From the NCBI GenBank assembly GCA_964510585.1, contig CAZECW010000029.1, positions 1 to 21,714 of the forward strand: DNA of 21,714 nt. Direction: 5' to 3'. The position numbers were made by a program, and so were the translations under genes. Source of the DNA: an uncultured archaeon (GTDB lineage: Archaea; Asgardarchaeota; Jordiarchaeia; Jordiarchaeales; Jordiarchaeaceae). Below the pieces are notes generated by a model. The model searched no databases, had not been told where the DNA came from, and saw nothing but the letters and a program-made list of their open reading frames with translations. Numbering within the stretch: the stretch's first letter is position 1; every line of letters begins with the position of its first letter. Shown one piece after another: positions 11,948-16,140 of the stretch.

Positions 11948-12169
11948 ACATCAATCCATCCCACATTTTTTTATTTCTTCCAATCACAATTAATAATTAT
12001 TTAATATTTTATTACTCACCAGTAGTTTATCAAAAAAGTAAATTCAAGTAATGTTTGGATTAAAAGACGCAGACCTTTTTCTAAATTTATTAGTATGGAT
12101 TTTGTAGCTCTTTAATTGATGTGATGGTTTAAAGTGCAATCATAAAGGATTTGTTTGGAGGTGTGTTTG

Positions 12170-13726
12170 TTGGAGAAGTATCCTTGGTGGACTGAGTATC
12201 AGAAAAAATTGGCTGATGAGGTTGAAGCTTTTGCCCTTCAGATTGCTCCCAGAGCTCTGGAGCTGGTCTGGAAGAGAGAACATCCTGCAGATTTAGTTAA
12301 AATGGTTGGAGAAAGGGGATGGTTTGGAGTACTAGTACCTGAAGAGTACGGAGGAATGGGAAAAAACGGTGGAGTGACTTCCAGTGCGATCATAACTGAG
12401 GGATTAACCAGCGTAGGGATGCTGGGAGGACTGTTTTTCTCCACCCAGTTTGGAGGTGTAAAACAGCTATCAACGTTTGGTACGCCTGAGCAGAAGGAGC
12501 GCTGGCTGACTAGGGTGGCTCGAGGCGAAGTGATAGGCGCGTTAGGACTCACAGAACCCTTTGTGGGGAGCGACGCTGCAGGGATCAAAACCACCGCGGT
12601 TAAGGATGGGGACGAATGGGTGATTAATGGCAAAAAGAGATTTATAACAAATACTGGGGTTGCAAACCTATACTTTGTTTATGCAAGAACTAGCAACGAT
12701 CCGAAAGATATTCAGGGCAGGAGGCATCTAACTGCCTTTGTTGTGGAACGGGGAACCCCAGGGTTTAGTGTGGAGAGAATAAATGAATTGGCGGTGTTTG
12801 ACGCTGTGCGTAACGGTACCCTTAACTTTAACAATGTGCGCGTTCCTGAAGAAAACATAGTTGGAGGAGTGGGTGGCGGTTGGAATGTTATGACTTCTGG
12901 TCTCAATTTTGAGAGGCTAATGATTGCAGTTTGTATGGTTTCCGCGATGAGGGAAGCTCTTAGGAACGCTTTATATTTCACTGAGAGGAGGGTGCAGTTC
13001 GGTCAGAGAACAATTGATTTTGAGAGTAACCAGTATAAAATTGCGGACATGATTATGAGGCTCAAATCCACAAGACTACTTTGCTATTATACTGCATACC
13101 AGGAGGACTTGGGTAACAACCCCATAATAGAGGCAAACGCAGCCAAAATTATGGCTACAGAATTGGCGAGAGAGTCTGCAATAGACGCTCTACAGGTCTG
13201 CGGGGGCGACAGCTTCACCAAATACTATACAGTGGAGCAACTGTTGAGAGATACCAAAATAAATGAGGTGGGGGGTGGCACCAACGAGGTTCTGAGGCGT
13301 CTCATAGTCTACATATATCGGAGACTATTCTCAGCTGAGATACCACAGCCTAGAAGACGCATACACAAAGAGCTGAGAATTCCTATTCCCTATTTTGAGT
13401 CTCCTGGTAGAAAAGCCCCCACAAGTCAAGCCACCACTCCTGAAGCTATGGAGAAATTGGTTCTTGAGGCTTTGAGTGAGGACTACTTTGTAAATCCTGG
13501 GCTTCACATGAAGCGTGAAGAACTAATGGACGATACCGGTTTGAGCGAGGAGCAGTTAGACGAAACCCTTCTCTCCTTGGAAGAGAAAGGGCTGGTTGAT
13601 CTTTGGCGTGATAGGCACGGAGTCATCAGGTTGGCTAAGGCCACCTACGAGGGGCTTAACAAGGCAAAACCCTTAGATTTCTACCGCTGGTATCCTCCAT
13701 GGAGCAGAGAAGAAGAGAGATTCTAA
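12170..13726 (+). CDS. Acyl-CoA dehydrogenase (IVD/LCAD-type catalytic Glu) with a C-terminal winged-helix-like extension
   Basis: VPEEYGG, ALGLTEPFVGSDAAGIKT, WVINGKKRFITN, F.NVRVPEENIVG, R.QFGQ..I..FE..QYKIADM, QVCGG and GGGTNEV, followed by about 130 extra residues. TTG 12170 follows a GGAGGTG RBS; the ORF track starts at 12155. Confidence 0.93.
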   Translation: MEKYPWWTEYQKKLADEVEAFALQIAPRALELVWKREHPADLVKMVGERGWFGVLVPEEYGGMGKNGGVTSSAIITEGLTSVGMLGGLFFSTQFGGVKQLSTFGTPEQKERWLTRVARGEVIGALGLTEPFVGSDAAGIKTTAVKDGDEWVINGKKRFITNTGVANLYFVYARTSNDPKDIQGRRHLTAFVVERGTPGFSVERINELAVFDAVRNGTLNFNNVRVPEENIVGGVGGGWNVMTSGLNFERLMIAVCMVSAMREALRNALYFTERRVQFGQRTIDFESNQYKIADMIMRLKSTRLLCYYTAYQEDLGNNPIIEANAAKIMATELARESAIDALQVCGGDSFTKYYTVEQLLRDTKINEVGGGTNEVLRRLIVYIYRRLFSAEIPQPRRRIHKELRIPIPYFESPGRKAPTSQATTPEAMEKLVLEALSEDYFVNPGLHMKREELMDDTGLSEEQLDETLLSLEEKGLVDLWRDRHGVIRLAKATYEGLNKAKPLDFYRWYPPWSREEERF

Positions 13727-13931: not shown

Positions 13932-14849
13932 TTAATAGTGCGGGGGCTCAGGATGGATCTTTTCAATGTAGCTTGTTTCAAAGACTTCCTTTTCGCCTAA
14001 TATCTTTTTTATGTAACCTAACTTTTTGAGAATTGGTACAAAGGCTAGAGTTGATGTAATGTATTGGGGGGAGAGTGCGGCGCAGTATTTCGGTGAGATG
14101 GTGTAGGTTGCTTTTACAAATTCAGGGTTTAATCCTTTTATTTCCTTGGAAACCAGTTTCGCTGCCTTGCCCGGATTCTCCCTGATGAGTGTACATGCCT
14201 TCTTGTGCATCTTTAAAAATTCCAGAATCACATGGGTTGTTTCCTTCAACTCTTCTCTTATCACTATGCCGTAGCTGGGGTTATTGGGCCAGAGCTTATT
14301 TGGAGGTATTACCAAGTGCACGTCAATTTGCCGGGAGGCGGCAACAATGAGGGATGGGGTTCCAACTGCGGCATCTATTTCCCCATTTTCCAGAGCTTCA
14401 GGAAGAAATTCTGCCCACTCATAATTTCTCACCGTTACGCCTTTCACGCCCTGTTCCTCAAGCAGGTTACGGATAATTACATCGTGTATTGAGCCTTGGG
14501 AAGGTGTTCCTATTTTCTTCCCAGAGAACTGCTCAAGAACCTTTTTCACATCCCCCAGTTCTTCCAGTGTTTTGTAGTGCTTAGGGGCTAACATAATGGT
14601 GCCTTCAACATGTCCTCCCCCCACACATATAATGGGATTACCCTTGTCTATAGCTATCATTGCTGGAGGAAGGCCAATGTAGCCTATGTCTATTTTATGC
14701 TCACTAAAAGCTTTGGTCATTGCGGGTCCGGTGGGATAGAGCTCCCAGTCAACCTTAAGCCCCGAACTTTTCTCCAACCATCCTCCACTTTTCAGAATGT
14801 AAGAGGTGTGGTACAGTGTTGGCAGGTATCCTACTCTGAGATCGCTCAA
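13932..14849 (-). CDS. SsuA/NrtA/THI5(NMT1)-like periplasmic-binding-fold protein lacking a signal peptide
   Basis: LRVGYLPT, GLKVDWELYPTGPAMTKAF...IDIGYIGLPPA, GKKIGTPSQGSIHDV and L..GEIDAAV. The TTG start overlaps the upstream TGA (TTGA). There is no hydrophobic N-terminus. Confidence 0.82.
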   Translation of the reverse strand: MSDLRVGYLPTLYHTSYILKSGGWLEKSSGLKVDWELYPTGPAMTKAFSEHKIDIGYIGLPPAMIAIDKGNPIICVGGGHVEGTIMLAPKHYKTLEELGDVKKVLEQFSGKKIGTPSQGSIHDVIIRNLLEEQGVKGVTVRNYEWAEFLPEALENGEIDAAVGTPSLIVAASRQIDVHLVIPPNKLWPNNPSYGIVIREELKETTHVILEFLKMHKKACTLIRENPGKAAKLVSKEIKGLNPEFVKATYTISPKYCAALSPQYITSTLAFVPILKKLGYIKKILGEKEVFETSYIEKIHPEPPHY

Positions 14850-15121
14850 CTACCGAAGCCCCCTGCTACTGGAAGGAACATTACAATAGTGTCTCCATCA
14901 TTTATTTTGGTTTCCGGGTTACCCGCTTCTTTTCCATTTATTAAGAACCTTACATACTTCCTTATTGTTCCCTTCTCGTCTAAAACAGCTTCTCTAAATT
15001 TCTCTCCATATTTCTGGCATAGATGCTGCGTGAGAAGGGCGATGTTCTCCTTCCTCTCTGTTTCTATCACCGCTTCGCCCACTATTTCCCGGAGCATGGT
15101 TAGAAATTTTACTTTTATCAT
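14846..15121 (-). CDS. MoaD/ThiS/SAMP1-like ubiquitin-fold protein, C-terminus ...PVAGG-FGS
   Basis: IKVKFLTMLREIVG, YVRFLING, KINDGDTIVMFLPVAGG: a canonical beta-grasp sulfur-carrier pattern with three residues after the diglycine. Confidence 0.9.
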   Translation of the reverse strand: MIKVKFLTMLREIVGEAVIETERKENIALLTQHLCQKYGEKFREAVLDEKGTIRKYVRFLINGKEAGNPETKINDGDTIVMFLPVAGGFGS

Positions 15122-15265: not shown

Positions 15266-15691
15266 TTGGATGAACTATTCACTTATCCTGAAAAAATTTA
15301 TGGAATATTTGTCGCAGTCCCGAGGAGGCCCAGATTTCCGCAAGTAAAGTACCTTTTTGTTTTCACAAACCACAGAATAATATTATTCCGGGGACTCGAA
15401 ATACTAAAAAACCCACCACCAGAAATCAACCCCCATTCCCGATACATCGACTGGAAACACGTGAGTAAAGTGGTGGAAAACATTAAGGGAAGTTACCAAA
15501 TCCCCCTATACGAGATTAAGGAGATAACAGTTAACACCTACTGGCGAAGAATAACCATTTACGGCTACCTTATGATAATAGAAACCTATGAGGGAAAAAA
15601 GCACAAATGGAACCTACGCTTCGAATACCTTGAAGCAATGAAAAACCTCGCCAAGGAACTGGGCATCCCCCTAAACATTATACGAAAATAA
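15266..15691 (+). CDS. Hypothetical protein, possible PH-like (bPH/GRAM) fold
   Basis: 141-aa ORF with LFVFTNHRIILF, IPLYEIKEITV, LMIIETYEG and a C-terminal amphipathic helix. TTTATAAA lies about 35 nt upstream. Confidence 0.7.
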   Translation: MDELFTYPEKIYGIFVAVPRRPRFPQVKYLFVFTNHRIILFRGLEILKNPPPEINPHSRYIDWKHVSKVVENIKGSYQIPLYEIKEITVNTYWRRITIYGYLMIIETYEGKKHKWNLRFEYLEAMKNLAKELGIPLNIIRK

Positions 15692-15813: not shown

Positions 15814-16140
15814 ATGGAACTTTTAGATAAGATATTAGTGCCAAACTGGACCACCAAAAACATGCTGGAGAGAAAAGTAATACAAAAGGCGGCTCAAGAA
15901 ATCAACGCAAACATAAAGAATATCGAAAAAGGCCCGGATTTCGCAACATTTAATCTTAGCACAAGTAAAACAGTTATGTTCCTCGGCGCTGACTACATTG
16001 TTAAACTAAAAGACTCCAAAAAGGGAGTTGTAGTGGAGCTCCAAGGAGAGCCCAAAATCGACCTAGAAGACCCTAAACGGCTAACAGAAACAGGATACAA
16101 ACTTTTAGAAAAAATCCAGAAACTATGCACACAAAAATAA
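15814..16140 (+). CDS. Hypothetical protein (108 aa)
   Basis: ATG with a GGTGA RBS 9 nt upstream. Helix-strands-helix pattern; I do not recognise a family. Confidence 0.65.
   Translation: MELLDKILVPNWTTKNMLERKVIQKAAQEINANIKNIEKGPDFATFNLSTSKTVMFLGADYIVKLKDSKKGVVVELQGEPKIDLEDPKRLTETGYKLLEKIQKLCTQK

Follow-up and report, generated by a model that had tools for sequence, protein, structure and literature searches.

A ubiquitin-like sulfur carrier paired with a cytoplasmic binding-protein-fold protein in Asgard archaea: a candidate alternative route to coenzyme M

The genome of an uncultured Asgard archaeon of the family Jordiarchaeaceae (GenBank assembly GCA_964510585.1) includes a stretch of 21,714 nucleotides (positions 1 to 21,714 of contig CAZECW010000029.1, referred to here as the window) that encodes, on the minus strand, two overlapping genes: one for a 91-aa ubiquitin-like protein (Ubl) of the MoaD/SAMP1 type that extends 3 residues past its diglycine (positions 14846..15121) and one for a 305-aa cytoplasmic protein with the SsuA/TauA/THI5 fold (13932..14849), denoted here SBPL, which we propose to be the catalytic partner of the Ubl. 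Comparative analysis of this pair suggests that it probably functions, in one role or another, in the sulfoacetaldehyde/coenzyme M pathway. The specific activity that we propose, thiocarboxylate-dependent thiolation of sulfoacetaldehyde yielding coenzyme M (2-mercaptoethanesulfonate), as an alternative to the known coenzyme M synthase MMP16/ComF, is one to which we assign about an even chance, from gene neighborhoods, structural models and analogy. Given that the fold is that of sulfonate binders, that the sulfur carrier comes with an activating E1 enzyme, that SBPL follows sulfopyruvate decarboxylase (ComDE) in gene clusters, and that many of the genomes involved lack MMP16, sulfoacetaldehyde thiolation appears to be the most economical interpretation. 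Somewhat more tentatively still, the pair might represent an MMP16-independent route to coenzyme M, combining an enzyme of the periplasmic-binding-protein fold with a Ubl thiocarboxylate, in those Asgard archaea, Bathyarchaeia and sulfate-reducing Thermodesulfobacteriota that lack methyl-coenzyme M reductase (MCR).

A pattern scan across species, each represented by one genome, yielded 472 relatives of SBPL, of which the best 80 were taken; gene neighborhoods were counted over 81 loci, with the neighbors clustered and the common clusters annotated. The 80 relatives come from Asgard archaea (Jord/Freyarchaeia, Hermod- and Promethearchaeota), a variety of other archaea (Methanobacteriaceae, Methanoperedens, ANME-2, Methanocellaceae, Methanomassiliicoccales, Bathyarchaeia, Hydrothermarchaeales and Hecatella) and, among the bacteria, Thermodesulfobacteriota. 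The partner of SBPL that recurs across phyla is sulfopyruvate decarboxylase, an enzyme of the coenzyme M pathway: SBPL comes after ComDE in five distant lineages, with cysteate synthase encoded upstream in four of them. In Hecatella, Bathyarchaeia, Hydrothermarchaeales and Methanomassiliicoccales, the genes for cysteate synthase (537 bits with TIGR03844, over the cut-off), a fused ComDE and, directly after it, SBPL are arranged on one strand, and in the Methanomassiliicoccales locus, the gene for a MoeB/ThiF-type E1 enzyme overlaps the end of the SBPL gene. In the complete genome of an Asgard archaeon from another family (G027), the genes for ComDE and SBPL adjoin each other in one operon, and a convergent Ubl gene lies just behind. 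The order cs, comDE, MMP16 in a row has been reported for M. acetivorans (PMC12068725); by comparison, SBPL stands where that cluster has MMP16, the known coenzyme M synthase.

In the bacteria, the ComD loci fetched from four ComD-positive genomes of Thermodesulfobacteriota contain consecutive comA, comB-like, comD, comE and radical SAM genes (TIGR03849 was over the cut-off in the one comA tested). The radical SAM protein of this cluster is about 305–321 aa long (L111:10200-11117, L112:6013-6978, L113:528-1478 and L114:4103-5011) and shows weak similarity to MoaA and to the W-maturase, its gene immediately following comE in all but one of the four loci; a homolog with 33% identity is encoded in the genome from which the window comes (contig C94:3181-4095). 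This gene could be responsible for a further step of the same pathway.

The link between SBPL and the coenzyme M genes is also apparent in genome content. Among 201 evenly sampled Asgard genomes, SBPL is present in 38, from four families, and ComD scored over its curated cut-off in 31 of these 38 compared to 22 of the 163 genomes without SBPL; among 201 evenly sampled Thermodesulfobacteriota (including two search seeds), SBPL was found in 10 genomes and ComD in 6, with SBPL present in all 6 of the latter and ComD over the cut-off in none of the 191 genomes lacking SBPL. These counts are to be read as a pattern in several lineages rather than as a probability because related genomes are not independent and odds ratios overstate the association, which is the first point that weighs on the other side. 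MMP16 was counted in 44 of the 201 Asgard genomes (42 over the curated cut-off and two copies truncated at contig ends), and the 53 ComD-positive Asgard genomes divide into 20 with SBPL only, 14 with MMP16 only, 11 with both and 8 with neither. No MMP16 over the cut-off was detected in the five ComD-positive bacterial genomes tested. As a separate observation, the presence of MMP16 over the cut-off in 42 Asgard genomes, mostly of one family, implies that this "methanogenesis marker" is not methanogen-specific.

The window's own genome (96% complete) encodes ComD and ComE over the cut-offs, homologs of ComA and ComB-like proteins, and several homologs of HdrA and HdrB, and contains no MMP16 over the cut-off (the best TIGR03287 match is 150.6 bits vs 363.95) and no MCR alpha. 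Directly after comE in this genome (L104:263-1537, on contig C152) lies a 424-aa gene of the threonine synthase family with weak similarity to cysteate synthase (66.8 bits vs a cut-off of 324.9); in a genome of the same genus (G032), MMP16 is found at about the place of this gene.

SBPL matches the Pfam family NMT1_2 (3.9e-17), and its AlphaFold2 model, built with 22 homologs, has a mean pLDDT of 95. The top Foldseek matches of the model are SsuA, TauA and Thi5, with TM-scores of 0.76–0.82 and 15–21% identity; for SsuA and TauA, the E-values of 1e-18 and TM-scores of 0.78–0.82 identify the type II binding-protein fold. A sequence search of solved structures retrieved four distant transporter proteins and nothing else. 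SsuA and TauA, the best matches among solved structures, share with SBPL the fold in which they form a sulfonate-binding cleft; SBPL differs from them in sequence (15–20% identity), in scoring below the family cut-off (116.5 bits with SsuA_fam, TIGR01728, against 163.5), in having neither a leader nor a permease/ATPase partner, and in the invariant His and Cys residues of its cleft, which the transporter proteins lack.

Several features place SBPL in the cytoplasm. The protein opens with MSDLRVGYLPT from a TTG codon, the only one among the possible start codons that retains the first beta-strand; this strand comprises residues 3–8, so close to the N-terminus that a leader peptide would not fit. 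The Kyte-Doolittle mean over 19 residues does not exceed 1.28, arguing against a membrane helix, and no export signal, lipid anchor or lipobox was found in SBPL, which has the same start point as the 22 aligned clade members. Genes for a permease or an ABC ATPase are absent from the window, and an ABC-ATPase-like ORF (about 595 aa) occurs within 6 kb of SBPL in only 2 of the 81 loci. The initial annotation of this DNA, made from the sequence alone, had described a MoaD/SAMP-like gene overlapping an SsuA/THI5-fold gene through TTGA, the latter starting directly at the mature-domain strand, with no signal peptide, lipobox or membrane anchor and no adjacent permease or ATPase gene, and had read the pair as a sulfur carrier with a cytoplasmic binding-protein-fold partner rather than an ABC transporter; the gene structure is as described, and the general claim holds for a leaderless clade with a recurring pairing.

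This clade is tight, its Asgard and methanogen sequences sharing more than 50% identity, and its members, of about 300–320 residues, begin at the same strand. A sister clade, with about 30–40% identity to SBPL, consists of proteins with twin-arginine (Tat) or lipobox leaders, one of which adjoins a permease. Signal peptides and permease or ATPase neighbors, which the initial annotation had named among the observations that would speak against its reading, thus count against it for this more distant sister clade only. Longer relatives of 390–403 aa were considered as possible Ubl-SBPL fusions and rejected: the additional N-terminal sequence consists of Tat or lipobox leaders and of low-complexity linkers, with no ThiS domain. 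The gene for one sister-clade relative with a Tat signal (L116:103-2058) immediately follows that for a RACo-type reductive activator of corrinoid proteins, which hints that the secreted proteins may serve corrinoid methyltransferase metabolism.

Across the 22 SBPL homologs, the invariant or nearly invariant residues are Y13, H14, C75, G78-G79-H80, E82, the GSIHD, GTP, NPSYG and SPKYC motifs, H215, H299, H304 and Y305; the His-containing motifs singled out in the initial annotation are real and belong to this conserved set. The sister clade keeps H80 and E82 and replaces H14, H122, T164, S192 and Y193; C75 and C256 are replaced in most, although not all, of its members. For a function that sets the cytoplasmic clade apart, these residues, which differ in the secreted sisters, are the prime candidates. 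Overall, judging by sequence conservation and the model, SBPL looks like a cytoplasmic, enzyme-like protein.

The Ubl belongs to the archaeal MoaD family (TIGR01687, moaD_arch, 63.6 bits against a cut-off of 49.5), with three paralogs in the window's genome, and matches the Pfam ThiS family (40.4 bits, cut-off 22.5, E-value 4.5e-10). A86-G87-G88 is invariant among 16 SBPL-linked Ubls; in the window, the codons of Gly87-Gly88 (14858..14863, minus strand), the presumed activation site, are followed by those of a Phe-Gly-Ser cap (14849..14857, minus strand), so that the protein ends PVAGG-FGS. Such a post-diglycine cap is present in Jordarchaeia only, as FGS or, in close relatives, SNG; all linked Ubls outside Jordarchaeia have a free GG end. 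The genome encodes four E1 enzymes of the ThiF family over the cut-off, among which the one on contig C149 is the closest, at 49% identity, to the SBPL-linked E1 of locus L074, and four Prok-JAB (JAMM) homologs, one of them about 2 kb from an E1 gene (contig C157). The FGS cap would presumably be removed by a JAMM protease before adenylation. The precursors of QbsE and CysO carry a comparable extension past the diglycine that requires a JAMM protease. The pair resembles MoaD-MoaE, ThiS-ThiG, CysO-CysM and QbsE systems in that a beta-grasp carrier would have its C-terminal GG, in the window's protein after removal of the cap, activated by an E1 and would insert its tail into the active site of a partner; it differs in that none of the described systems employs a partner with the type II periplasmic-binding-protein fold and in the proposed acceptor, a sulfonated aldehyde.

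The two genes share the 4 nt TTGA (14846..14849, minus strand), a sequence in which the Ubl stop codon overlaps the TTG codon that starts SBPL. The same 4-nt overlap is present in three other loci (L019, L020 and L023), and the two proteins may be translationally coupled. A MoaD-family Ubl is encoded within 250 nt of the SBPL homolog in 25 of the 81 loci, in Jord/Freyarchaeia, Hermod/Promethearchaeota and Methanobacteriaceae; in Jord/Freyarchaeia and Methanobacteriaceae, its gene precedes that of SBPL on one strand, and in the other Asgard lineages it is downstream and convergent. The recurrence in three lineages of a Ubl next to a signal-less SBPL, for which the initial annotation had proposed to look, indicates from gene neighborhoods that the pairing is beyond chance. 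The Methanobacteriaceae pair faces, in convergent orientation, genuine hdrA, hdrB and hdrC genes and a MoeB/ThiF gene. The survey of archaeal Ubl neighborhoods by Makarova and Koonin (2010; PMC2948915) does not mention the Ubl-SBPL pairing, and the searchable literature (subscription journals lie outside it) contains no Ubl-SBPL pair, no thiocarboxylate or sulfur-carrier route to coenzyme M and no coenzyme M synthase besides MMP16. Sulfur-carrier systems as such are known; what is new is the fold of the partner, together with the substrate proposed for it.

A model of the complex, predicted in three runs from self-built alignments of both proteins with the Ubl cut at Gly88, supports binding of the Ubl to SBPL with the tail in the cleft, the arrangement for which the initial annotation had suggested a multimer model as a check. 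The complex scored 0.85, compared to 0.23 for the best of three controls; 58 of 80 solved complexes, compared to 2 of 110 mismatched pairs, attained this mark, a calibration that is approximate here owing to the self-built alignments. At least 96% of the contacts agree between the runs, and the pLDDT of the partner is at least 90. The predicted contacts connect Ubl residues 82–88 with SBPL residues 9–12, 116, 120, 122, 163–164 and 166–167, that is, the loop after strand 1 and the cleft-lining GSIHD and GTP motifs. We know of no solved complex of a binding-protein fold with a beta-grasp protein, although this is not an exhaustive statement, and hence the prediction seems unlikely to reproduce a known complex.

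By analogy with other thiocarboxylate donors, we infer a reaction sequence in which the substrate, the product, each chemical step and the source of two electrons are all conjectural. A JAMM protease would take the FGS cap off the Ubl; one of the MoeB/ThiF-type E1 enzymes of the genome would adenylate Gly88, which would then be converted to the thiocarboxylate; and the Ubl would dock on the C-lobe of SBPL with its tail threaded into the cleft between the lobes. Sulfoacetaldehyde made by ComDE would be bound in the cleft, its sulfonate held at the helix N-termini of the GSIHD and GTP motifs and its carbonyl activated by His and Cys residues specific to the clade or by a metal that these residues bind. 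The thiocarboxylate sulfur would attack C1, the Ubl would leave as the carboxylate, and the thio-intermediate would be reduced to the thiol.

The system to be compared is MMP16/ComF (methanogenesis marker 16, a COG1900 domain combined with a ferredoxin domain; PMC12068725), the known coenzyme M synthase. SBPL resembles it in occupying the same place after cs-comDE, in a similar correlation across genomes with sulfoacetaldehyde synthesis and in the proposed reaction, conversion of the aldehyde of sulfoacetaldehyde to a thiol; the likeness is functional only. SBPL has an unrelated fold, no Fe-S domain and no match to TIGR03287, and is present in many genomes without MMP16. The sulfur source would differ as well, a protein thiocarboxylate in the case of SBPL, as opposed to sulfide or persulfide handled by the COG1900 domain in MMP16.

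Apart from the non-independence of related genomes, a number of observations weigh against SBPL being a coenzyme M synthase. Conversion of an aldehyde to a thiol takes two electrons, and SBPL has no ferredoxin or flavin domain, nor is there a reductase that consistently adjoins it. The 11 Asgard genomes with both proteins, along with the Methanomassiliicoccales genome, indicate that SBPL is no simple replacement of MMP16; furthermore, 8 ComD-positive Asgard genomes have neither, and 7 Asgard genomes that hold SBPL, some of them incomplete, have no ComD over the cut-off. The Ubl adjoins SBPL in only part of the lineages, and the linked Ubls form no single well-supported clade: those of Jord/Freyarchaeia group weakly with those of Methanobacteriaceae (92/67), and the backbone of the tree is unresolved, such that neither a single origin nor joint transfer of the pair can be claimed. 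Coenzyme M in Asgard archaea and in these bacteria is a prediction from gene content, and gene order would look the same whether a protein acted in the pathway as an enzyme or as a binder or carrier.

The last point leads to the alternative that survives best, although we consider it rather unlikely, namely, that SBPL is a non-catalytic cytoplasmic carrier, buffer or sensor that binds a sulfonate or oxyanion of the pathway (coenzyme M, sulfoacetaldehyde or sulfite), with the Ubl binding it for regulation or conjugation. Such a role would agree with the binding-protein fold and with the fact that the nearest sister clade consists of actual transporter binding proteins; the gene order and co-occurrence suit any role in the pathway equally well, SBPL is found alongside MMP16 in some genomes, and both routes to sulfoacetaldehyde start from sulfite, which is toxic. 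A binder accounts less readily for the enzyme-like invariance of the cleft, with H14, C75, H122 and C256 specific to the clade (the two cysteines being mostly replaced in the secreted sisters), for the dedicated sulfur carrier and the overlapping E1 gene in one lineage, or for the reactive Ubl tail that enters the cleft in the model, and it would leave the last step of the pathway otherwise unassigned in the 20 ComD-positive Asgard genomes that have SBPL and no MMP16.

Thiolation of sulfoacetaldehyde also has to be weighed against an improbable function in molybdenum/tungsten cofactor synthesis, whereby the Ubl would be the small subunit of molybdopterin synthase and SBPL a cytoplasmic tungstate/molybdate binder or a pterin-handling partner for the neighboring AOR. 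The Ubl is indeed of the MoaD family, an AOR gene is present in the window, and in 17 Methanoperedens loci, the SBPL homolog is convergent with moaA, 8–13 of these loci also containing a gene for a 68-aa ThiS-like protein. The latter protein ends VVTGG and is encoded upstream of moaA, both genes being convergent with SBPL (L029, L032, L037, L041, L048, L050, L055, L059, L068, L086 and L097); in Methanoperedens, a Ubl gene of another subfamily is thus located within about 1 kb of SBPL or less. However, the MoaA neighborhood is limited to one genus and is convergent, and the neighborhood with AOR and the 2-oxoacid:ferredoxin oxidoreductase (OFOR) is common to close relatives only. Moreover, MoaE, MoaA, MoaC and two further MoaD paralogs are encoded elsewhere in the window's genome, SBPL is patchy in its distribution (38 of the 201 Asgard genomes) and tracks ComD rather than cofactor genes, and it matches none of the ModA, TupA and WtpA families. 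Replacement of MoaE was considered as a separate candidate and is ruled out by the presence of the genome's own MoaE, MoaA and MoaC.

Comparably improbable is that SBPL is a cytoplasmic metal-handling protein tied to heavy-metal efflux. In four bacterial loci (L025, L026, L028 and L073), rubrerythrin, a CGGC-domain protein and an HMA-bearing P-type ATPase are encoded on the same strand, directly followed by SBPL, and a P-type ATPase gene is also located near SBPL in two Asgard loci (L106:5551-8166 and L087) and one Methanobacteriaceae locus. In addition, there are many invariant His and Cys residues, and SBPL shares a GH-EG motif with PDB 3un6, a structure titled as solved with zinc. Metal handling as such does not explain why SBPL follows ComDE and co-occurs with ComD, why it is linked with Ubl and E1, or why a complex is predicted, and a bound metal would suit SBPL as a metalloenzyme equally well; the P-type ATPase neighborhood hints that SBPL may need a metal.

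The initial annotation had offered thiamine or pterin supply for the neighboring OFOR and AOR as an example of the function of the pair, and this part is not supported, given the restriction of the OFOR/AOR context to close relatives, the lack of an invariant lysine and the Moa genes elsewhere in the genome. That SBPL is a THI5-like synthase of hydroxymethylpyrimidine phosphate (HMP-P), or another thiamine enzyme with the Ubl as ThiS, is very improbable, notwithstanding the match to Pfam NMT1/THI5 (42.8 bits) and the presence of Thi5 structures among the Foldseek matches (TM-score about 0.77). THI5/NMT1 provides a precedent for a binding-protein fold of similar structure turned into a cytoplasmic, His-dependent enzyme. 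Thi5 needs a lysine that binds pyridoxal phosphate, together with a His partner; there is no lysine among the invariant or nearly invariant columns of the alignment of 22 SBPL homologs, the identity to Thi5 is only 14–21%, the motif set is different, and no thiamine gene recurs beside SBPL in the 81 loci. Equally far-fetched is an ordinary binding protein of an ABC importer with its partners encoded elsewhere in the genome, the name that NCBI and JGI annotations give to homologs and with which the fold and the nearest families agree, considering the strand that starts at residue 3, the lack of a leader, lipobox or membrane helix, the sub-threshold SsuA_fam score and the rarity of ABC-ATPase-like neighbors.

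Judged by its nearest relatives, the window belongs to a Jordarchaeia/Freyarchaeia-type Asgard archaeon. Apart from the pair, it contains genes for a methylmalonyl-CoA-mutase-type protein, the three-subunit OFOR, the AOR, a 4-hydroxybutyryl-CoA dehydratase-like protein, an adenylate-forming enzyme, an acyl-CoA dehydrogenase, an NMO-family protein, MtrH (5 kb from the pair) and an SDR protein. Two small ORFs on the plus strand, of 141 aa (15266-15691) and 108 aa (15814-16140), have no Pfam match and adjoin the Ubl-SBPL pair in every Jord/Freyarchaeia locus examined, with the 141-aa ORF in some loci located on the opposite side of the pair; for the latter, the Atlas search gave weak leads only, to bPH/GRAM-like proteins. 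The acyl-CoA dehydrogenase (12155-13726, plus strand) has a C-terminal extension of about 130 residues, and the same 522–523-aa form adjoins the pair in L023, with fragments in L019. Among public sequencing runs, the DNA matches are hot-spring metagenomes; no RNA match is listed.

Of all the steps that lead to coenzyme M, the last is the least settled: mutants lacking MMP16 still grow at high sulfide, and backup routes have been inferred (PMC12068725). If the Ubl-SBPL pair is indeed a coenzyme M synthase, the gap in many ComDE-positive, MMP16-less genomes would be filled by a second, unrelated system that occupies the same place in the gene cluster; this candidate is directly testable using the existing auxotrophic mutant. 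The pair would also add a new partner fold to the systems that depend on sulfur-carrier proteins. Published genome analyses predict coenzyme M synthesis in Freyarchaeia and MCR-free, coenzyme M-dependent methyl transfer in Jordarchaeia (PMC11291895, PMC9723677), and the proposed activity would provide concrete support for such non-methanogenic making and use of coenzyme M in some Asgard archaea. More generally, coenzyme M or a closely related thiol-sulfonate would be a far more widespread cofactor than thought, and the presence of SBPL beside comA, comB-like, comD and comE in sulfate reducers raises the question of what use bacteria might make of such a thiol.

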